50,273 nt of DNA from Candidatus Kapaibacterium sp. (GTDB lineage Bacteria; Bacteroidota; Ignavibacteria; Kapaibacteriales; UBA2268): contig JAVBOP010000154.1 in assembly GCA_031550405.1 (NCBI GenBank), forward strand, positions 1-50,273. The letters are read 5' to 3'. How positions within the stretch are numbered: position 1 is the first letter of the stretch; each line of letters begins with the position of its first letter. Below the pieces are notes generated by a model. The model had not been told where the DNA came from, did no database searches, and worked only from the letters and a program-made list of their open reading frames with translations. A program made the translations under genes and the position numbers. Below are positions 1 to 48,851 of this stretch, piece by piece.

Positions 1-85
1 GCTCGCATTCATCGCCGCAGCCAGCCGCCATTATCGCCGCCAATGCCAGCACTGGCAGCCATTTCAAAATTTTTATTGTCTTCAT
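1..85 (-). CDS. 5' end of a lipoprotein gene that runs off the window (partial)
   Basis: Not in the ORF track because it is open at the window edge. The reverse strand has GGAGG a few nt before ATG (83-85), then MKTIKILKWLPVLALAAIMAAGCGDECE: a signal peptide plus a lipobox-like AAGC. Confidence 0.4.
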   Translation of the reverse strand, partial: MKTIKILKWLPVLALAAIMAAGCGDECE

Positions 86-131
86 AAGACCTCCATTTTT
101 AAATAAAATAGTGTGAAAAAATTTGTTTTTT

Positions 132-139
132 TAAATTTG
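132..139 (+). promoter_or_regulatory. TAAATTTG, candidate FCB-type -7 promoter box facing palindrome copy 161-180 and repeat element A
   Basis: Exact match to TAnnTTTG. No protein-coding gene lies downstream on this strand. The motif has low information content. Confidence 0.25.
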
Positions 140-160
140 TAAAGCATAATATGCCTCCAT

Positions 161-180
161 TTATGAATATTTTTTAATAA
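161..180. repeat. 20-bp palindromic motif copy (TTATGAATATTTTTTAATAA)
   Basis: Matches TTATGAA-N6-TT(C/A)ATAA and is identical to the copy at 8066-8085. Intergenic, 76 nt upstream of the partial lipoprotein start. Confidence 0.8.
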
Positions 181-185
181 TCTAT

Positions 186-270
186 ATCGTTATTGGCTGT
201 AATTGAAAGTTGTTTTGCAGCAGAACAGTGAAAGGTATTTGGTGTGTTCACTATTCTGCCGCTATTGCTC
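186..270 (+). repeat. Copy A of a structured element of about 85 nt (inverted partner at 3206-3288)
   Basis: Core 198-267 aligns by eye at roughly 85-90 percent with the reverse complement of 3206-3276. Internal hairpin: arm 217-232 (GCAGCAGAACAGTGAA) pairs with arm 247-262 (TTCACTATTCTGCCGC). Confidence 0.7.
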
Positions 271-405
271 TTCGATTTCCTGTATCTCCATTTCCATTGT
301 TTTTTCTTGTAGTAGTAATTGTCTAAATTTCAATATAACATTTTTTTATCATTTGCAGGTAGTGATTTCTTTTAAAACTTATTTTTGGCAAAACAGCTTA
401 TATAT

Positions 406-433
406 AAAAAAAATTCCATCTTAAAAGATGGAA
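406..433 (-). terminator. Rho-independent terminator downstream of secG
   Basis: On the minus strand: stem TTCCATCTT / AAGATGGAA followed by a run of T (A-run 406-413 on the plus strand). Confidence 0.7.
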
Positions 434-458
434 TTATCTGTATATATATAGTTAAAAT

Positions 459-812
459 TTAGTTTGCAGGCTGTTGTTCTTGCGATGGAGCAGGAGCAGG
501 CTGCACCGGAGCGGGCATAGGTTTCTGCTCAGGAATGGCAATGCCTTCTGTAACAGGTTTTACGATTTCCATCGCCGTTTGCCCAACAAAAAATTTATTT
601 GTAACAATAACAAGCAACATCATCGCAATTGCCAATCCAATTGTAGTTTTAGTTAATAAATCCATTGCTTTCCGCGTGCCAAACATTGATGTTATTGAGC
701 CGCCAATAGTGCCCATTCCTGTCATCATATCGCCTTTGCCCGGCTGAATCAGCACAACAAGTATTATCAATATTGCGATAATAATTAATAAAACCATCAA
801 AAAAGTATACAT
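459..812 (-). CDS. secG: Preprotein translocase subunit SecG
   Basis: 117 aa with two TM segments. Has the LIQPGKGDMMTGMG...FGTRKAMDLLTKTT pattern typical of SecG, plus a Pro/Ala/Gln-rich tail. Confidence 0.85.
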   Translation of the reverse strand: MYTFLMVLLIIIAILIILVVLIQPGKGDMMTGMGTIGGSITSMFGTRKAMDLLTKTTIGLAIAMMLLVIVTNKFFVGQTAMEIVKPVTEGIAIPEQKPMPAPVQPAPAPSQEQQPAN

Positions 813-866
813 TTTTCTTCTCTTCCCTATTGTAATTTACGTTATTTGCTTTAAAAGTACAGGCTA

Positions 867-874
867 CAAAAATA
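867..874 (-). promoter_or_regulatory. TATTTTTG candidate -7 box upstream of secG
   Basis: Reverse complement of CAAAAATA, 55 nt upstream of the secG ATG. Confidence 0.3.
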
Positions 875-983
875 AGATAATTAATGCTTATAAACAAAAT
901 ATTTTTTTGCGGGATCGAATTTGCCATCCAATTTACTTGGATAATTTTGCCAATAAATCCTACGAATGCTTGATATAGCATAA

Positions 984-991
984 TATATTTG
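984..991 (+). promoter_or_regulatory. TATATTTG candidate -7 box upstream of rubrerythrin
   Basis: Matches TAnnTTTG about 70 nt upstream of ATG 1062. An AAGGAG RBS lies at about 1048. Confidence 0.3.
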
Positions 992-1061
992 CTTTTTATC
1001 CGTTTATATAGCTTGTAGAAAATTAGTAAATAAAGTATTTTTACACAAGGAGAAAAAATAT

Positions 1062-1637
1062 ATGGCTAAATTAGCAGGAACAAAAACAGAAAAAAATTTA
1101 TTGAAAGCTTTTGCTGGCGAATCGCAGGCAAGAAATCGCTATGAAATGTTTGCAAAAATTGCACGGAACGAGGGCTACGAACAGATTGCAGGCATTTTTG
1201 AAGAAACAGCGGCACAGGAAAAAGAGCATGCAAAGCGTTTCTTTAAATTTTTGGAAGGCGGAATGGTTGAAATCACAGCTACTTATCCAGCTGGAATTGT
1301 TGGCACAACACCGGAAAATTTGAAAGCAGCTGCCGACGGCGAGCGAGAAGAATGGGATATTCTTTATGCTGATTTTGCGAAAACAGCGAAAGAGGAAGGC
1401 TTTAATGACGTTGCTGCCGCATTTAACATGATATCAAAAGTAGAATATCAGCATGAAAAACGCTATTTGAAATTGCTTGAAAATATTGAAAAAGAGCACG
1501 TATTTGTTAGCGATAAGGCGGAAAAATGGTATTGCCGCAATTGTGGTTATGTTCACGAAGGCGACAAAGCCCCAGAAAAATGCCCTGCCTGTTTGCATCC
1601 TAAAGCGCATTTTCAATTAATGGCAGAAAATTATTAG
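1062..1637 (+). CDS. rbr: Rubrerythrin
   Basis: N-terminal ferritin-like diiron domain (EKNLLKAFAGESQARNRY, EKEHAKRF) plus a C-terminal rubredoxin-like CRNCG...CPAC motif. Confidence 0.9.
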   Translation: MAKLAGTKTEKNLLKAFAGESQARNRYEMFAKIARNEGYEQIAGIFEETAAQEKEHAKRFFKFLEGGMVEITATYPAGIVGTTPENLKAAADGEREEWDILYADFAKTAKEEGFNDVAAAFNMISKVEYQHEKRYLKLLENIEKEHVFVSDKAEKWYCRNCGYVHEGDKAPEKCPACLHPKAHFQLMAENY

Positions 1638-1648
1638 ACTCTGCTGTT

Positions 1649-1668
1649 TTATGAATATTTTTTCATAA
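1649..1668. repeat. 20-bp palindromic motif copy (TTATGAATATTTTTTCATAA)
   Basis: Perfect 7-6-7 palindrome 12 nt after the rbr stop. Identical to the copy at 25347-25366. Confidence 0.85.
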
Positions 1669-1688
1669 ATATATTCTTAATTTGTATT

Positions 1689-1715
1689 GGGACGAGTTTT
1701 GCTCGTCCTTTTTTT
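1689..1715 (+). terminator. Rho-independent terminator of rbr
   Basis: GGACGAG-TTTTG-CTCGTCC followed by TTTTTTT. Confidence 0.85.
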
Positions 1716-1807
1716 GTTAAATAAGGAATTTATTGATTTATCTGGCAGCAATAAATAAAATGTTGATAAATATCGAGTATAAATTTGTTGGTTATAGGAT
1801 AAAAATG

Positions 1808-1815
1808 TATTTTTG
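1808..1815 (+). promoter_or_regulatory. TATTTTTG candidate -7 box upstream of the decarboxylase beta-subunit gene
   Basis: 43 nt upstream of ATG 1858. Confidence 0.35.
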
Positions 1816-1857
1816 TAACATATATATATGTCATAATATAAAAATGGGAACTTTATA

Positions 1858-2988
1858 ATGTTAGAAGCTATCACAGAGTTGATGAACTCTATGGCATTTC
1901 AATACCTCAATTGGGGTAATATTATCATGATATTAATATCTGTTGTCTTGCTCTATTTGGCTATTGTCAAGGGCTTTGAGCCTTTGTTGCTTATACCGAT
2001 TGCTTTTGGTTGCTTCCTTGCCAACCTGCCGATGAGCGGTCTGTTAAACCCTGCAACAGCAGATACCATTGGTGGTATGTTCTATTATGTATCCTATGGC
2101 TTGAAACTGGAGCTATTTCCACCGCTTATCTTCCTCGGAATAGGAGCTATGACCGATTTTGGACCGCTTTTAGCCAATCCAAAAACTTTTTTGCTCGGTG
2201 CATCTGCGCAACTTGGGGTTTATACAGCCTTTTTGCTGGCATTTGCGTTTGGTTTTACACTGCCGGAAGCAGCATCAATTGGCATTATAGGTGGCGCCGA
2301 TGGACCTACCGCGATATTTTTAACAAATAAACTGGCACCTCATCTGCTTGGCGCCATTGCAGTTGCGGCATATTCATACATGGCGCTTATACCGCTTATC
2401 CAGCCGCCAATAATGAAACTTGTAACCAATGACAAAGAGCGCAAGACCGTTATGTCGCCTCCTCTCGCGGTTTCCAAGTGGGTAAAAGTAGCATTCCCAT
2501 TGCTGGTTACTTTCCTTGCGGTTATGATTGTTCCACCCGCCGCACCCCTTGTGGCAATGCTTATGGGCGGCAACCTCCTTAAGGAAAGCGGTGTTGTCGA
2601 CAGATTATCAAAAATGGCGCAAAATGAGCTTATAAACATAGTTACGCTGTTCCTTGGCATATCTGTTGGTATGAAGATGAGTGCTGATGTGTTTTTGACA
2701 TTTGAGACTATCAAGATAATAATACTTGGAGTAATAGCCTTTTCATTTTCCACGTTTGGCGGTGCATTTTTAGGCAAAATCATGTACTATATCACAGGTG
2801 GCAAGGTTAATCCTCTCATTGGCTCGGCAGGAGTATCAGCAGTACCAATGGCAGCGCGTGTTTCGCATGACGTCGGCTTAAGATACAATCCTAACAATTA
2901 TCTGCTCATGCACGCTATGGGACCTAATGTTGCGGGTGTTATAGGCAGTGCCGTTGCTGCAGGCGCATTGCTCGCATTTTTAGGATAG
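1858..2988 (+). CDS. Na+-translocating decarboxylase beta subunit (OadB/MmdB/GcdB family)
   Basis: 376-aa polytopic membrane protein. Length, the N-terminal GFEPLLLIPIAFG motif and the GADGPTAIF and SAGVSAVPMAARV segments are typical of the family. Confidence 0.8.
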   Translation: MLEAITELMNSMAFQYLNWGNIIMILISVVLLYLAIVKGFEPLLLIPIAFGCFLANLPMSGLLNPATADTIGGMFYYVSYGLKLELFPPLIFLGIGAMTDFGPLLANPKTFLLGASAQLGVYTAFLLAFAFGFTLPEAASIGIIGGADGPTAIFLTNKLAPHLLGAIAVAAYSYMALIPLIQPPIMKLVTNDKERKTVMSPPLAVSKWVKVAFPLLVTFLAVMIVPPAAPLVAMLMGGNLLKESGVVDRLSKMAQNELINIVTLFLGISVGMKMSADVFLTFETIKIIILGVIAFSFSTFGGAFLGKIMYYITGGKVNPLIGSAGVSAVPMAARVSHDVGLRYNPNNYLLMHAMGPNVAGVIGSAVAAGALLAFLG

Positions 2989-3091
2989 GATTAAGTTTAC
3001 GCCCTGCATAATAATTTAAAATACCAAAATAAAAAATCATATATACAATATTGCATTTATTCTACAAAGATTAAATCATCTAAATACTCCA

Positions 3092-3120
3092 ATGGGCTAC
3101 TTCGGTATCCCATTTTTTTT
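3092..3120 (+). terminator. Rho-independent terminator downstream of the decarboxylase beta-subunit gene
   Basis: ATGGGCTAC-TTCG-GTATCCCAT (one mismatch, UUCG loop) followed by T8. Confidence 0.7.
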
Positions 3121-3205
3121 AATTGATTGATGATAAAGCATTACTATCTTCAGGTTTTCTGTTGTTATAGCTATAGCAAAGACGAGATTAGTATAGAATT
3201 CTGAC

Positions 3206-3288
3206 CAATAGCGACAGAATAGTGAACATACATAAATACCTTTCACTGTTCTGCTGCAAAAAACTTCTCAATTACAATCAACAATGAT
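3206..3288 (-). repeat. Copy B of the structured element of about 85 nt (inverted partner of 186-270)
   Basis: Its reverse complement aligns with copy A. The hairpin arms are 3211-3226 and 3242-3257. Like copy A it lies immediately next to a palindrome copy (3299-3318). Confidence 0.7.
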
Positions 3289-3298
3289 CTAATTTTTA

Positions 3299-3318
3299 TT
3301 ATGAAAATATTTTCATAA
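3299..3318. repeat. 20-bp palindromic motif copy (TTATGAAAATATTTTCATAA)
   Basis: Perfect half-sites. Ends 2 nt before the stop codon (3321-3323) of the minus-strand alkylation-repair gene. Confidence 0.85.
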
Positions 3319-3320
3319 TT

Positions 3321-4040
3321 CTATTTTTTCATGGCTTCTGCTTTCATTTCTGGCGGCATTTTTTCGATTGCATAGCGAAGTGCGGTTCGAGGCATAGTCG
3401 CTTTGTGCTTGATAACAAAATCAAATACCTCTTTTTGATGAGCTTGACTTGCCGCTTTGAGTAGCCAGCCATAACCTTTCTGAACCAAATCGTCTTTGTC
3501 TTCCAGCAAAATAGCAGCTATCTCGAAAATATCATCTAAAAACAAGCCCTTGCGAGCAGGAATAATGAGCGAAACAGCTGCAGCACGGCGAACCCAGCGG
3601 TTATTTGACGTTGCCCATTTCTTTAATTGCGATATATAATTCGGGTACATTCCAATAAATTCGCCGACAGTATGATTGCACAAAATATCGCACGAAGCCC
3701 AATTATTCACATGATTTTGCACCCAGCGCTCGAATATCTCAAAGTCGTCTGGCTCATATTGTTTGTGTATATAATACGACCAGTTACAGGCGATAAACGA
3801 TTCTTCCAAATATCCCGAACGCCAAAGCTCCTCGCATAAATTAAAAATTTCTTCTTTAGATTCGCCTTTTATTTCATCGAAATATGTTTTGCTGATTTTA
3901 TTGACAGCAGGCACTTTCACGCCGTATGATTTGATTTTTTCCTTAAAGAAATGCTGCGATGTGCTTTGCGTTTTTTCGTCAATGCTGTTTTCCAGCTTCT
4001 CTTTTATTCGATTAAGTATTGTATTCATTCGTATTATCAT
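3321..4040 (-). CDS. DNA alkylation repair protein (AlkD/AlkC-like HEAT-repeat glycosylase family)
   Basis: 239 aa and all-helical. The pattern (QHFFKEKIKSYGVKVP, NWASCD, NRWVRRAAAVSL, GYGWLLK) resembles the DNA alkylation repair enzyme family. An alternative ATG start lies at 4028. Confidence 0.65.
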   Translation of the reverse strand: MIIRMNTILNRIKEKLENSIDEKTQSTSQHFFKEKIKSYGVKVPAVNKISKTYFDEIKGESKEEIFNLCEELWRSGYLEESFIACNWSYYIHKQYEPDDFEIFERWVQNHVNNWASCDILCNHTVGEFIGMYPNYISQLKKWATSNNRWVRRAAAVSLIIPARKGLFLDDIFEIAAILLEDKDDLVQKGYGWLLKAASQAHQKEVFDFVIKHKATMPRTALRYAIEKMPPEMKAEAMKK

Positions 4041-8065: not shown

Positions 8066-8085
8066 TTATGAATATTTTTTAATAA
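8066..8085. repeat. 20-bp palindromic motif copy (TTATGAATATTTTTTAATAA)
   Basis: Starts 3 nt after the last base of the rfbB stop codon. Identical to the copy at 161-180. Confidence 0.8.
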
Positions 8086-19213: not shown

Positions 19214-19233
19214 TTATGAATTTTTATTCATAA
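19214..19233. repeat. 20-bp palindromic motif copy (TTATGAATTTTTATTCATAA)
   Basis: Perfect palindrome including the spacer ends. Identical to the copy at 23747-23766. Lies 12-42 nt upstream of the large-gene start. Confidence 0.85.
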
Positions 19234-23746: not shown

Positions 23747-23766
23747 TTATGAATTTTTATTCATAA
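23747..23766. repeat. 20-bp palindromic motif copy (TTATGAATTTTTATTCATAA)
   Basis: Lies in the divergent atpD / M24-peptidase spacer. Identical to the copy at 19214-19233. Confidence 0.85.
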
Positions 23767-25044: not shown

Positions 25045-25346
25045 TTTTATTAGGTATTGTTCACACTAATTAAACAATCAAAAATTAACGAAAATGCAAT
25101 GAACATTGTGCCAGTTTTATCGTATTGGGTGAAAATCTTCTAAATCTTTTGGTTCGCCTGAATAATCTTTCAATTTCATTGCATTTTTCTATATTTTTTT
25201 GTCGCAATTTTTCGGCTGGATTTCGAAGGTATGACAGGCTCTAAGCCTTTAAAGCGCCAGTTCCTCTGCGGCGGTATCTGCAAGGCTGTTTGCGGGCACG
25301 GTTGCATCAGCAGCAATATCATTCGGCTCAATATTTTCATCATCAT

Positions 25347-25366
25347 TTATGAATATTTTTTCATAA
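25347..25366. repeat. 20-bp palindromic motif copy (TTATGAATATTTTTTCATAA)
   Basis: Lies in the middle of a 530-bp spacer between convergent genes. Identical to the copy at 1649-1668. Confidence 0.85.
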
Positions 25367-25575
25367 ATATTCTGTTGTGCGGATTATTTATGGATAAATG
25401 TTTCGAAAAAAGCGGGATACAGCCGAGCTAAACCTTGAGTGTTATTGCAGTAGAATTAATGGCAAAAAAACAAGCAGATAATGGTAAAAAAGGCAAGAAT
25501 TTAGGCTTTTTTTGATATTCAATATTAGATGTAAGCGCCTTAAATAACAATGTATTAGAGCGTGCAGATATTTAT

Positions 25576-38660: not shown

Positions 38661-38680
38661 TTATGAAAAAAAATTCATAA
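38661..38680. repeat. 20-bp palindromic motif copy (TTATGAAAAAAAATTCATAA)
   Basis: Perfect half-sites. 17 nt after the antiporter stop and 39 nt before the ClC start. Confidence 0.85.
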
Positions 38681-40698: not shown

Positions 40699-43269
40699 CT
40701 AAAATTTTTCAACAATATTATAAAATTCTGTTTCTAATAATTGCGGCAATTTAGAAATATCTTTGCCGCCAGCCGTTGCTAAATGAGGTTTGCCGCCGCC
40801 GCCGCCGCCGAGTAGTTTTGCAGCTTCACCGACAAGTTTTCCGGCGGGCATTTTCCCTTTCAAATCGTCAGTTACAGCACAAGCAAGCTGCACTTTGTCA
40901 TCAATAATCGTCGCAATCAGGCAAATGCCTTGTGTATTCAAGGATTCGCGTGTTTTTTCAGCAATAGTTCTGAGCTGGTCAAGGTTGTCAATATTCTCCA
41001 TTTTGCGAACAATGACGCTAAGATTGCCGACCATTTTTTTGTCATTATCAGAAATATCGCCGGCTGATTGTGCGATTTTCTCCAATTTCGCCTTCTCTAT
41101 TTCCTTCTCAAAGCCTCGAATTTTATCCTGCAATTCCTCAATTATGAATTTTTGTTCATAAATTTTATCTTCCAAGCTCTTTACAAACGCCACCGCTTTA
41201 CAGCCTGTAACAGCTTCTATTCTGCGTACACCTGCAGCTACAGCCGATTCAGATGTGATTTTAAATAAACCAATTTCTGCCGTATTTTTAACATGAGTAC
41301 CGCCGCAAAGTTCAATCGAAAAATTGCTCATGGATAAAACTCGCACAATATCGCCATATTTATCGCCAAAAAACATTTTGATTTTCGGATTTTTTTGAGC
41401 TTCTTCGATCGTGCAAGTCTTTGTATCAACAGGTATTTGCTCCAATATTTTGGAATTTACAATGTCCTCAATTTTGCGAATTTGATCGCTGGTAACTTTC
41501 TCAAAATGGTTGAAATCAAAACGCAAATAATCCGCCGCCACCAGCGAACCAGCCTGCTGAATATGCGAGCCAAGCACCTCATAAAGCGTTTCATGCAGCA
41601 AATGCGTTGCGGTATGATTACGCATAATGGCACGGCGATGCTGAATATCCACAGTTGCAACGGCAAATTTATTGAGTATATCGCACATCATGGAATTTAT
41701 TTTTTCCTCCATATTTTCGGCACAAATATGGAAAATTGCATTCCCAACTTTCTTAACATTAACGATATTGCATGTTACGCCGGCTATAATAATTTCGCCA
41801 ATATCGCTGACCTGACCACCACTTTCCGCATAAAACGGAGTTTTTTCAAGAACAATCAAGTTGTCTTTTATGAACAAAATTTTAGACTGTGCTTTCAATT
41901 CTTCATAACCAATAAACTCCGAAACGAAATCAGTTTGCGGAAATTCTATGTTCATAGCCACATTTTTTTGAGCCGCTTTTGAACGCTCTTTCTGCTCTTT
42001 CATTTTTTGCTCAAATCCAGCAATATCAACGCCTAAGCCACGTTCGCGTGCAATTAATTCGGTCAAATCAAACGGAAAACCAAATGTATCATAAAGCAAA
42101 AATGCGTCATCTCCAGAAATGGTTTTCGTGTTAGAATTATGAATTTTAGTTAATATTTCTTCGATTCTATCCAAACCGCGTTCCATTGTTTGAAGAAAAT
42201 TTTCTTCTTCGCCACGAATAATTTTTTCTATATTCGCCTGATTTTGCTTGATTTCCTTGAAATAATCGCCCATAACATCGACAAGCGTTTGCACAAGTTT
42301 GTACATCATCGGTTCGCGGAAACCGAGTTCACGTGCATAGCGGCAAGCACGCCGCAAAATTCGCCGCAAAACATAGCTGCGACCTTCATTTCCGGGCATT
42401 GCGCCATCAGCAATCGCAAAAGACAACGCACGCAAATGGTCAGCAATAACACGCATCGCAATATCGCTTTTTTTCGTCAGATCGGCAGTATATTCGATTC
42501 CGCTAAGTGTTTGTATTTTCCGTAAAATAGGAGTAAAAATATCCGTGTCATAATTGGACTTCACATTCTGCAAAATCGAACAAATCCGCTCAAAACCCAT
42601 TCCCGTATCGACAAATTTGTCTTTCAACGGTTCGAGTTCGCCATTTTCCTTGCGATTGAACTGAATAAACACCAGATTCCAAATTTCAATAACATCGGGA
42701 GAGCCTGCATTTACAAGGCTTGCACCGGACATATCGGGCGTTCTGTCATAATGCACTTCACTGCACGGACCGCATGGACCAGTATTTCCCATTTCCCAGA
42801 AATTATCCTTTTCGTCAAAACGCTGGATATGATCTTCGGGCAGATAATTTTTCCAAATTTCATAAGCCTCATCATCGGTGCGATAAACGGTCGCATAGAG
42901 GCGTTTTGGGTCAAGTTTCCAAATTTTTGTTAATAATTCCCACGCCCAATCAATCGCTTCAACTTTATAATAATCGCCAAAACTCCAATTGCCGAGCATT
43001 TCGAAAAAAGTATGATGATAAGTATCGACACCGACTTCTTCCAAATCGTTGTGTTTTCCGCTTACGCGAATACATTTTTGGGTATCAGCAGCACGTTTAT
43101 AATCGCGATTGCCAGTGCCAATAAACACATCTTTGAACTGGTTCATGCCGGCATTTATGAAGAGCAAAGTCGGGTCGCCATGAGGAATTACAGGGAAACT
43201 TGGAACTATTCTATGGTCTTTTGATTTGAAAAAATCAAGAAATGATTGTCTAATTTCTTTCGATGTCAT
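40699..43269 (-). CDS. alaS: Alanine--tRNA ligase
   Basis: 856 aa. Has FFKSKDH, the class II core, the editing-domain HTATHLLH motif and a C-terminal GGGGGKP motif. Confidence 0.97.
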   Translation of the reverse strand: MTSKEIRQSFLDFFKSKDHRIVPSFPVIPHGDPTLLFINAGMNQFKDVFIGTGNRDYKRAADTQKCIRVSGKHNDLEEVGVDTYHHTFFEMLGNWSFGDYYKVEAIDWAWELLTKIWKLDPKRLYATVYRTDDEAYEIWKNYLPEDHIQRFDEKDNFWEMGNTGPCGPCSEVHYDRTPDMSGASLVNAGSPDVIEIWNLVFIQFNRKENGELEPLKDKFVDTGMGFERICSILQNVKSNYDTDIFTPILRKIQTLSGIEYTADLTKKSDIAMRVIADHLRALSFAIADGAMPGNEGRSYVLRRILRRACRYARELGFREPMMYKLVQTLVDVMGDYFKEIKQNQANIEKIIRGEEENFLQTMERGLDRIEEILTKIHNSNTKTISGDDAFLLYDTFGFPFDLTELIARERGLGVDIAGFEQKMKEQKERSKAAQKNVAMNIEFPQTDFVSEFIGYEELKAQSKILFIKDNLIVLEKTPFYAESGGQVSDIGEIIIAGVTCNIVNVKKVGNAIFHICAENMEEKINSMMCDILNKFAVATVDIQHRRAIMRNHTATHLLHETLYEVLGSHIQQAGSLVAADYLRFDFNHFEKVTSDQIRKIEDIVNSKILEQIPVDTKTCTIEEAQKNPKIKMFFGDKYGDIVRVLSMSNFSIELCGGTHVKNTAEIGLFKITSESAVAAGVRRIEAVTGCKAVAFVKSLEDKIYEQKFIIEELQDKIRGFEKEIEKAKLEKIAQSAGDISDNDKKMVGNLSVIVRKMENIDNLDQLRTIAEKTRESLNTQGICLIATIIDDKVQLACAVTDDLKGKMPAGKLVGEAAKLLGGGGGGKPHLATAGGKDISKLPQLLETEFYNIVEKF
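41142..41161. repeat. Palindromic motif match inside alaS (TTATGAATTTTTGTTCATAA)
   Basis: Both 7-nt half-sites are perfect. Encodes ..YEQKFII.. in the linker before the C-terminal domain. Confidence 0.5.
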
Positions 43270-48074: not shown

Positions 48075-48851
48075 ATGAATTTTTTTTCATTTATTGGCAG
48101 AAAAATATTAAATTTTTTGGCAGAACTCGGTCGAATTTTTATTTTATTATGCCGAATTTTCCGCTATTTTCCTGCTGCATTCAAACATAAGCAGTTGATA
48201 TTAAAGCAGATGGCTATCATAGGAGCCGATTCACTGCCATTGGTTCTGTTAATAGGGGCGTTTACGGGGGCAATCGCTGCGCTGCAGGCAACAACCCTGT
48301 TCGATAAATTTAATCTAATGGATATTGCCAAGCCATTTCTTGGTGCTTCCATCGCAACGGTGGTGTTGCAGGAACTGACTCCTGTGCTTACGGCGCTTGT
48401 TATAGCTGGTCGCGTTGGCGGATCTATGGCTGCACAAATCGGCACAATGCAAGTTACGGAGCAAATTGATGCGCTGGAAATGATGGCGATTGATAAAAAT
48501 AATTTTCTTGGGATGCCGAGAGTAATGGCTTCTCTTGTTATGATGCCCATACTCGCTGTGTTTTCGGCAGTTGTAGCTATGCTGGGAGCATATTTTATGG
48601 TTATCGCTAAATTTGATTTTAATCCAGAATTATATATCACCTCAATCCAAAGCTTTTTCAGAATGTCAGAGTTGCTTACATGCCTTCTAAAATCAGCAGT
48701 ATTCGGCGGCATAACTTCGTTGATAGGCGTGCATGTTGGCTTTACCACTATTGGCGGTGCAGAAGGCGTTGGCAACAGCACCGTGCGGGCGTTCACCATG
48801 TCCGCCGCCGTAATATTAATTTTAGATGCTCTCTTTGGTTTTATTTTGTAA
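48075..48851 (+). CDS. mlaE: MlaE-family ABC transporter permease
   Basis: The LTPVLTALVIAGRVGGSMAAQIGTMQVTEQIDALEMMAID signature is characteristic of MlaE/YrbE. Confidence 0.85.
   Translation: MNFFSFIGRKILNFLAELGRIFILLCRIFRYFPAAFKHKQLILKQMAIIGADSLPLVLLIGAFTGAIAALQATTLFDKFNLMDIAKPFLGASIATVVLQELTPVLTALVIAGRVGGSMAAQIGTMQVTEQIDALEMMAIDKNNFLGMPRVMASLVMMPILAVFSAVVAMLGAYFMVIAKFDFNPELYITSIQSFFRMSELLTCLLKSAVFGGITSLIGVHVGFTTIGGAEGVGNSTVRAFTMSAAVILILDALFGFIL

Follow-up and report, generated by a model that had tools for sequence, protein, structure and literature searches.

Two copies of a structured intergenic element, about 85 nt long and in opposite orientation, had been noticed by eye on either side of a secG–rbr–oadB gene block in a contig of Candidatus Kapaibacterium sp. 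(50,273 nt, the whole of which is the window analysed here). This raises the question of what such a pair represents, as small RNA genes, 3′-UTR elements, a MITE-like repeat and sites for inversion of the intervening segment had all been put forward. Repeat search and blastn bear out the two inverted copies around secG–rbr–oadB. Copy A (161–270, plus strand) aligns with copy B (3318–3203, minus strand) over 116–117 columns at about 80–82% identity, with inverted-repeat arms at 183–240/3234–3291 (58 nt, 84%) and 242–270/3203–3231 (29 nt, 90%), and positions 186–272 and 3201–3288 are identical in 73 of 88 columns. Without the flanking palindromes described below, element A spans 183–270 and element B 3203–3291, and a covariance model (CM) built from the two scores them at 111.5 and 113.6 bits, respectively. 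The 24-mer GCAGCAGAACAGTGAAAGGTATTT occurs exactly twice in the window, where shuffled sequence predicts 0.00 occurrences, and the longest run identical in both copies is a 28-nt block, TTTTGCAGCAGAACAGTGAAAGGTATTT (213–240 in A, 3261–3234 in B), besides which they share an identical run of 14 nt. A divergence of about 17–20% shows that the pair is no assembly artefact and did not arise by a fresh duplication, and since blastn similarity stops at 161/270 and 3318/3203, a larger duplication, which the earlier note had considered as a recent event that might account for the similarity, is ruled out. The inverted repeat is real, about 110 nt long, and consists of two diverged non-coding copies bracketing secG–rbr–oadB.

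The genes around the repeat are assigned by Pfam as SecG, rubrerythrin, OAD_beta and a DNA_alkylation protein. The bracketed segment holds secG (459–812, minus strand), the rubrerythrin gene rbr (1062–1637, plus strand) and oadB, for the beta subunit of a Na+-translocating decarboxylase (1858–2988, plus strand). Outside A lies the 5′ end of a gene that looks lipoprotein-like from its sequence (1–85, minus strand, cut by the contig end), and outside B an AlkD-like DNA alkylation repair gene (3321–4040, minus strand; 235 aa, 3321–4028, with the database start). Between secG and A is the intrinsic terminator of secG (412–435, minus strand; 10-bp stem and U-run), and between oadB and B a terminator-like hairpin, GGGCTAC-TTCG-GTATCCC followed by T8 (3094–3120, plus strand), which has one stem mismatch and is unlisted by the scanner. 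Terminators thus delimit the intergenic DNA that holds each copy, and the gene contexts of the two are unrelated, a setting more in keeping with a repeat than with a dedicated cis-regulator. The minus strand of A and the plus strand of B, hereafter A(−)/B(+), correspond to the sense strand of the inner gene next to each copy (secG and oadB, respectively), and B(+) runs towards the 3′ end of the AlkD-like gene. The suggestion that the element belongs to the 3′ UTR of the alkylation-repair gene suits B but not A, which has no co-oriented gene upstream. If instead the element were a cis-regulatory leader or riboswitch-like RNA for the adjacent outer genes, A(−) would stand ~100 nt upstream of the lipoprotein start codon, followed by a 21-codon upstream ORF. 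However, B(+) has no co-oriented gene downstream, so A and B cannot share such a role, and the element has no Rfam match; given the context of B, we regard this reading as close to excluded.

The inverted arrangement could also mean that A and B are recombination sites for flipping the 2.9-kb secG–rbr–oadB segment, be it through a programmed switch or through recurrent homologous inversion. The orientation of the copies and their two identical runs agree with this, and as 28 nt of identity comes close to the shortest length generally quoted for RecA-dependent recombination, inversion is physically possible. Against it, no invertase, integrase or transposase was found by Pfam among the 39 window ORFs scanned, and flipping the segment would alter no promoter–gene link and have no evident regulatory consequence, since secG, rbr and oadB are each served by an upstream region and a terminator of their own. 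Two assemblies of the same sample show a single orientation. The same organism, which is present in SRR23967709, is on record as one 3.2-kb contig of an independent Logan assembly, 100% identical, which ends within 1–2 nt of the inner edge of A and is the sole hint of polymorphism. This single break (n = 1) is weakly consistent with branching of the assembly graph at the edge of the repeat and might be taken to favour inversion, but a crossover within the repeat makes no new junction at 269, so inversion would not explain it. We therefore consider inversion, which the earlier note had entertained, highly improbable.

The earlier note had also described a hairpin of about 16 bp at 217–232/247–262, to be read as RNA in the A(+)/B(−) orientation. 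The position of the stem stands, though not as 16 clean pairs. The hairpin of A (217–262; 14-nt loop) comprises 14 Watson–Crick and 2 G·U pairs on the minus strand, and 14 Watson–Crick pairs with 2 A·C mismatches on the plus strand. That of B (3211–3257; arms 3211–3226/3242–3257, 15-nt loop) has 13 Watson–Crick pairs, 2 G·U and 1 A·C on the plus strand, and 13 Watson–Crick pairs, 1 G·U and 2 A·C on the minus strand. Two stem positions are common to A and B in being A·C on A(+)/B(−) and G·U on A(−)/B(+). Folded as RNA, A(−) reaches −24.7 kcal/mol (z = −5.15) and B(+) −18.5 kcal/mol (z = −3.85), values that none of 200 shuffles equalled; A(+) and B(−) are unremarkable (z = −0.79 and −1.19). DNA parameters return the same strand asymmetry, with z = −4.12 and −2.76 on A(−)/B(+); the asymmetry depends on three stem positions, two against one. 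The one is the single stem difference between the copies, which is one-sided, turning G–C into G–U on one strand and leaving C·A on the other. It does favour the A(+)/B(−) strand as the earlier note had argued, but the two A·C mismatches and the weak folding scores on that strand speak against it.

The copies differ at 1 of 32 stem positions compared with 22 of 84 positions elsewhere (Fisher one-sided p = 0.003), and judged from these two sequences the stem is apparently the constrained part of the element. Most of the remaining differences had been thought to fall in the loop; in fact 15 lie in the linker of 41 columns that joins the palindrome to the hairpin, and the loop differs at only 3 of 15 positions. 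Structure-preserving substitutions had been expected as well, and the comparison of A with B reveals no compensatory base-pair change and no double change in the stem. The stem of A is flanked by TTTT and TATTG on the plus strand, and by CAATA and AAAA on the minus strand. The conclusion that the element is not a terminator is upheld, as neither strand has a U-run after the stem (UAUUG follows on A(+)/B(−) and an A-run on A(−)/B(+)) and the A/B hairpin is not listed by the terminator scan, so an intrinsic terminator is ruled out.

Each copy does have a palindrome next to it, as originally noted. These 20-bp AT-rich sequences lie 3–10 nt outside A and B, one per copy: TTATGAATATTTTTTAATAA beside A (161–180), with 1 mismatch to TTATGAA-N6-TTCATAA, and the perfect TTATGAAAATATTTTCATAA beside B (3299–3318), 2 nt past the stop codon of the alkylation-repair gene. 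At ≤1 mismatch, however, the palindrome is present in 18 copies in the whole window (0.07 expected), with 11 copies in its 6.4 kb of non-coding DNA. It is therefore an abundant independent motif, and its adjacency to A and B is weaker evidence than it looked. The proposal that palindrome and element form one unit is accordingly retained in part, in that homology plausibly spans the palindrome to the hairpin, while 9 of the 11 non-coding palindromes stand without the element. In IMG/VR viral contigs the palindrome pattern gave 2 isolated chance matches.

If A and B belong to a repeat family, further copies might be expected, and the earlier note had expected them. No third copy is present in the full 50-kb window by 24-mer, blastn or the covariance model run with filters off, and the copy count (n = 2) refers to this contig. 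One CM match of 18 bits (48086–48174) was rejected, as it lies inside the N-terminal coding sequence of MlaE. Among GTDB species representatives, a set of genomes that does not include the source species, the pattern AGAACAGTGAA-N8-24-TTCACTRTTCT gave 16 loci, all chance matches: unrelated perfect palindromes in diverse phyla and without flank similarity. A 19-mer scan of JGI metagenomes, from which the source species is likewise absent, gave 12 chance matches of 19–21 nt. The element blocks had 0 matches in IMG/VR viral contigs, and blastn in distant mode found no match in plasmids and phages. Nor did six-frame translations of A and B return anything at E ≤ 10 from 5.8 billion predicted proteins, a search sensitive to near-identical copies only. 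Across ~100 kb of related Ignavibacteria loci the element was not found; the best match, an intergenic stretch of one locus (L030, 725–809) at 19 bits that shares TTGAGAnGTTTTTTGCAG and ACTATTCT, was not counted, its nhmmer E-value being 2 over all loci. Queries with OadB, AlkD, SecG and Rbr led to no syntenic relative, and the homologues sit in other gene contexts, none of them with the element. Thus, within the reach of these data, the window and the collections searched hold no further copies.

The element also matches no known RNA family and has no coding potential. Rfam 15, suggested earlier as a means of placing it, gave 0 matches at the gathering score in the whole window, and at E ≤ 10 over positions 1–3500 four matches at 1561–1720 and 2353–2408, three of which overlap the rbr terminator and none of which falls at A or B. 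The reading as a small protein or a type I toxin was discarded, as the ORFs diverge after 5 residues owing to the loop indel; this 1-nt indel shifts every frame between A and B, so no ORF is conserved. A tRNA or att site was likewise rejected, no tRNA being present.

These results bear on the possibility that a structured small RNA specific to this lineage is encoded by A and B as paralogous genes. In its favour, blocks are kept outside the stem (a −10-like TGTAATTGA and the 28-nt block, which includes 8 loop bases), the stem is apparently constrained, and A and B are both intergenic. Paralogous small RNA families and 3′-UTR-derived small RNAs similarly comprise short intergenic non-coding loci with a conserved stem-loop. 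However, a sigma-70 consensus scan detected no promoter-like site inside the unit on A(+)/B(−). The only nearby match (3347–3318, minus strand, 9/12) is upstream of B and mostly within the coding end of alkD, its second hexamer ending on the outer base of the palindrome, and the spacing from palindrome to TGTAAT differs by 5 nt between A and B. No terminator or U-run lies 3′ of the stem on either strand, and on A(+)/B(−) the hairpin is poor. Unlike the known families, then, A and B have no conserved promoter or terminator, Rfam family, homologue in the related Ignavibacteria loci, third copy in the sequences searched or covariation, which leaves a small RNA gene family unsupported and a pair of small RNA genes improbable.

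A more serious alternative, although still somewhat unlikely, is a neutral relic, in which an intergenic palindrome, linker and hairpin were duplicated once, in inverted orientation, by the local rearrangement that assembled secG–rbr–oadB, and are now decaying without function. Such an event would leave just two copies; A and B lie 3 kb apart, and neither the rest of the 50 kb nor the collections searched contain another. The unusual gene order also fits a rearranged region: oadB stands alone next to rbr and has its closest homologues in oadG–biotin carrier–oadB operons, secG follows lptE in one relative, and the AlkD-like gene has different surroundings in every relative compared. No composition anomaly of the bracketed segment is evident. 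The uneven decay of stem and surroundings, however, is not predicted by neutral drift, even if local gene conversion could mimic it, and a 16-position hairpin with a z-score of about −5 is atypical of random intergenic DNA.

Among described bacterial repeats, REP and REPIN elements offer one comparison. They are, like A and B, extragenic, non-coding, imperfect palindromes that form stable hairpins in single-stranded DNA or RNA, occur 3′ of genes or between convergent genes and in opposite orientations, are species- or genus-specific and, for REPINs, are similar in size to the ~100 nt overall of A and B (PMC3116915, PMC3733652). REPs mostly follow coding regions, lie between ORFs that run in the same direction or converge, and often form pairs of opposite orientation (PMC3733652; PMC3116915). 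The hairpin of A and B also has the form used to recognise these elements, an imperfect 20–40 bp palindrome or ~100-nt inverted doublet. Yet REPs number tens to hundreds per genome against two copies of A/B in the 50-kb contig, and a REPIN consists of two REPs, each palindromic, whereas A and B have a single 16-bp stem with a 14–15-nt loop. REP palindromes carry at one end an unpaired tag, GTAG or CGTC (PMC3733652). Inspection of the sequence found no such tag beside the A/B stem, and Pfam found no RAYT (Y1 HUH transposase), other transposase or recombinase among the 39 window ORFs. By copy number, the abundant 20-bp AT-rich palindrome is more REP-like than the A/B element.

Bacterial MITEs (Correia/NEMIS, ERIC, RUP, BOX) are likewise ~100 nt, non-coding, intergenic, able to form hairpins and found in unrelated gene contexts, and when co-transcribed they can alter mRNA stability. 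A and B differ in having no known parent IS, no terminal inverted repeats at the ends of either the 110-nt or the 88-nt unit, where only the internal stem is complementary, and no target-site duplication in the sequence at 159–161/270–272 or 3318–3320/3201–3203. Elements of the IS200/IS605 family lack terminal inverted repeats and target-site duplications, and would thus fit their absence at A and B. These elements and their non-autonomous derivatives (PATEs) bear imperfect subterminal hairpins recognised as single-stranded DNA (PMC6006769). In any one such element, however, the left-end and right-end hairpins share a strand, unlike the inverted A and B; the window has no TnpA/TnpB gene, and the 2.9-kb cargo between A and B is made up of housekeeping genes. 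The MITE-like repeat of the earlier note is still a plausible reading.

We conclude that the element most probably represents a small repeat of an ordinary kind in intergenic DNA, or else an intergenic module that was duplicated. More specifically, we tentatively favour A and B as diverged copies of a lineage-restricted, low-copy, non-coding hairpin repeat of the REP/REPIN/MITE-like kind, ~90–110 nt long. In such a model a module would have been copied, by a route that the model does not specify, into two intergenic sites 3 kb apart and in opposite orientation. Each copying would have placed it beside one of the many 20-bp AT-rich palindromes, the palindrome being either carried along with the module or already present at the landing site, and the core that was kept would be the 16-position stem-loop, forming best on A(−)/B(+). 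As this is the sense strand of secG and oadB, any cellular effect would most likely come from an RNA hairpin formed where secG and oadB transcripts read through at their 3′ ends. If transcribed, the hairpin could stabilise these RNAs as a 3′ exonuclease barrier or be a site of processing, roles described for REP-type elements; given the terminators between secG or oadB and the elements, read-through may be low. Alternatively, the relevant form may be a single-stranded-DNA hairpin that is recognised while the element is being copied. A less ordinary outcome, an undescribed and untagged REPIN-like mobile family that inserts beside the palindrome of this lineage or else two lineage-specific small RNA paralogues, appears rather doubtful.

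If A and B are a two-copy relic, they would be only a local signature of rearrangement around secG–rbr–oadB, and neither this outcome nor a repeat family bears on a long-standing open question. A limited full-text literature search found no description of REP-, MITE- or small-RNA-type repeats in Ignavibacteria-like bacteria. If the element is one of many copies, it would represent a new small hairpin repeat family in these bacteria, and a mobile hairpin family or lineage-specific small RNA would, if true, be the first for the phylum. The A/B element and the abundant palindrome would then also be markers for strain typing and would help to explain breaks in MAG assemblies.

The inverted repeat described in the earlier note is borne out. 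A repeat search of the window recovers two pairs of inverted arms, one of 58 nt at 84% identity (183-240/3234-3291) and a second of 29 nt at 90% (242-270/3203-3231), which correspond to element copy A (183-270) and its inverted counterpart B (3203-3291) on either side of secG-rbr-oadB. With blastn both arm pairs merge and stretch outward past the adjoining palindromes, giving one alignment of 161-270 with 3318-3203 (117 columns, 82%) and no similarity outside it. As homology ends at these limits, the repeat does not form the border of some larger duplication, a possibility that had been raised earlier. The longest run identical between the copies is 28 nt, and in the window, a whole contig of 50,273 nt, the 24-mer GCAGCAGAACAGTGAAAGGTATTT has exactly two occurrences against 0.00 expected from dinucleotide shuffles. 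A and B are a real, bounded, non-coding, hairpin-centred repeat, present as two diverged copies in unrelated intergenic contexts.

Read in the A(+)/B(-) orientation, the aligned region starts with a 20-bp palindrome (A 161-180; B 3318-3299; 3 of 20 positions differ), followed by a poorly kept linker that ends in a conserved TGTAATTGA (15 of 41 columns differ), a T-run, a 16-position stem (A 217-232/247-262; B 3257-3242/3226-3211) enclosing a loop of 14-15 nt with its first 8 bases conserved, and a tail TATTG(C/G)TC after the stem (1 of 8). The majority of the differences fall in the linker and not, as the earlier note had it, in the loop (3 of 15). The stem is significantly better conserved than the remainder, with 1/32 differences versus 22/84 elsewhere (Fisher one-sided p = 0.003). 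Since the loop carries a 1-nt indel that shifts all reading frames between A and B, and the ORFs crossing the two copies have merely five residues in common, the element encodes no protein.

If the element acts single-stranded, the evidence favours the A(-)/B(+) strand, opposite to the one originally proposed. The one stem difference between the copies (G-C in A, G·U in B) had been read correctly in support of A(+)/B(-), but two further stem positions, common to A and B, mispair as A·C on that strand and form G·U wobbles on A(-)/B(+); with three positions, two against one, this is only suggestive. Folding points the same way, as the stem is predicted for both A(-) RNA (-24.7 kcal/mol, z = -5.15) and B(+) RNA (-18.5 kcal/mol, z = -3.85), with 0/200 shuffles as good in either case, while A(+) leaves the stem unused in its minimum-energy fold (z = -0.79) and B(-) reaches z = -1.19. 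The ranking of the strands is the same under DNA folding parameters. On neither strand is the stem followed by a U-run, and the element is thus not a terminator, as the earlier note had recognized. Its suggestion of an RNA gene family finds no support: that A and B are paralogous small RNAs is improbable, as no promoter or terminator is kept together with the element, the proposed strand A(+)/B(-) folds poorly, and there is neither a homologue nor covariation. Rfam gives no match at A or B, and no tRNA was found.

Pfam domains confirm the gene names assigned earlier: SecG (459-812, minus), rubrerythrin (1062-1637, plus), OAD_beta (1858-2988, plus) and a DNA_alkylation protein, AlkD-like (3321-4040, minus). 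On A(-)/B(+) both elements are downstream of, and co-oriented with, the adjacent inner gene; A(-) lies 196 nt past the secG stop codon, behind the secG intrinsic terminator (435-412), and B(+) lies 222 nt past the oadB stop codon, behind a terminator-like hairpin and T8 at 3094-3120. That the copies are cis-regulatory leaders is the least probable of the readings considered and can almost be set aside. On the outer side of A, a 21-codon upstream ORF runs from 147 to 82 on the minus strand (window 82-158) with its own GGAGG at 158 to 154, and it ends in a TGA that overlaps the ATG (85 to 83) of a truncated lipoprotein-like gene; its ribosome-binding-site flank is present twice (90-105 versus 154-169). 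The ORF may encode a leader peptide with coupled translation.

The palindrome TTATGAA-N6-TTCATAA is also found away from the element. Allowing at most 1 mismatch, it has 18 copies in the window against 0.07 expected (Markov), of which 11 fall within the 6.4 kb that is non-coding (13% of the window; 0.015 expected), frequently 0-40 nt before start codons or just past stop codons, and also between convergent genes. Examples are at 1649-1668, 8066-8085, 19214-19233, 23747-23766, 25347-25366, 38661-38680 and 41142-41161. The perfect copy at 25347-25366 sits between convergent genes in an intergenic region of unusual length (531 nt, 25045-25575), which has no Rfam match at gathering score. One copy (3619-3638) is present in locus L030, which comes from another Ignavibacteria species of the same sample, and the palindrome is absent from the other related Ignavibacteria loci fetched. 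The repeated unit probably includes a palindrome, because weak similarity runs on across the linker, but the motif is common, 9 of its 11 non-coding copies have no adjoining element, and insertion beside a very common motif could equally produce the pairing. The palindrome itself could be a REP-like repeat of this lineage, or it could serve a global regulator as its operator.

When the whole window is searched, filters off, with a covariance model made from A(-)/B(+), A and B score 111-114 bits and the next matches ≤18 bits; the best of these, 48086-48174, lies inside the MlaE N-terminal coding sequence and is a chance match. Pattern scans of GTDB (one genome per species), JGI metagenomes and IMG/VR yielded no third copy, their matches being unrelated hairpins or chance similarities of 19-21 nt; plasmid and phage collections held none, and concatenated six-frame translations, compared with 5.8 billion predicted proteins for ORFs miscalled over other copies, gave no match. 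For OadB and AlkD, the nearest homologues (74-91% amino-acid, ~75% nucleotide identity) all have other gene neighbourhoods, in which the element is absent. In L030, the intergenic stretch 725-809 upstream of an oadB homologue carries TTGAGAnGTTTTTTGCAG and ACTATTCT, arranged as in the element, but its short hairpin is a different one; its covariance-model score of 19 bits is marginal, and it is not counted as a copy because its nhmmer E-value over all loci is 2.

The bracketed oadB is solitary beside rubrerythrin (1062-2988), whereas its closest homologues (86-91% identity; six fetched loci) belong to carboxyltransferase-oadG-biotin carrier-oadB operons, some of which hold two oadB copies in tandem. 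Judged by the named homologues of its OadB (86% identity), the organism is an Ignavibacteria/Kapabacteria-like bacterium. For the AlkD-like gene, the best named homologues are from Bacteroidales (Parabacteroides, Tannerellaceae; 74-78% amino-acid identity) and the neighbours differ in each related contig, which suggests that this gene is horizontally mobile. That oadB is solitary, that the AlkD context varies and that the searches brought up no other copies would fit A and B being a neutral relic of one inverted duplication within a rearranged region. We rank this reading second and consider it less likely than not, the uneven decay across the element speaking against it.

Outside the window, the only record of the same organism is a Logan contig of 3,206 nt from an independent assembly (SRR23967709), 100% identical to 269-3474 of the window. 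The end of this contig and the inner boundary of A are 1-2 nt apart, and the break could reflect low coverage or a graph branch caused by a second copy, an alternative junction or an empty-site variant. Inversion of the segment between the copies does not explain the break, because a crossover within the repeat makes no new junction there. An inversion switch is very unlikely; a Pfam scan of 39 window ORFs detected no recombinase or transposase domain. No repeat is present at the opposite end of the contig (3474), and none of the other loci fetched from the same sample shares a k-mer with it there.

We tentatively favour the reading of A and B as a small REP/REPIN/MITE-like intergenic hairpin repeat, so that the MITE-like repeat proposed in the earlier note may be right. 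This accounts for the constrained stem, because such elements depend on their hairpin, and also covers the fact that the copies are non-coding, lie in unrelated contexts and in opposite orientations, and are placed downstream of genes and between convergent genes; REP-type repeats in general are described as extragenic, in varied contexts and opposite orientations, downstream of genes or between convergent genes (PMC3733652, PMC3116915). Unlike REPs and REPINs, however, A and B have no GTAG/CGTC tag, unlike MITEs they have neither terminal inverted repeats nor a target-site duplication, and no transposase such as serves these classes is in view within the window. With all four missing and two copies seen, we describe the element as working like these repeats and not as a member of any of them. 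Most likely it is a new element of low copy number within the wide range of small hairpin repeats found between bacterial genes, and it would be of interest mainly if the full genome has many copies.
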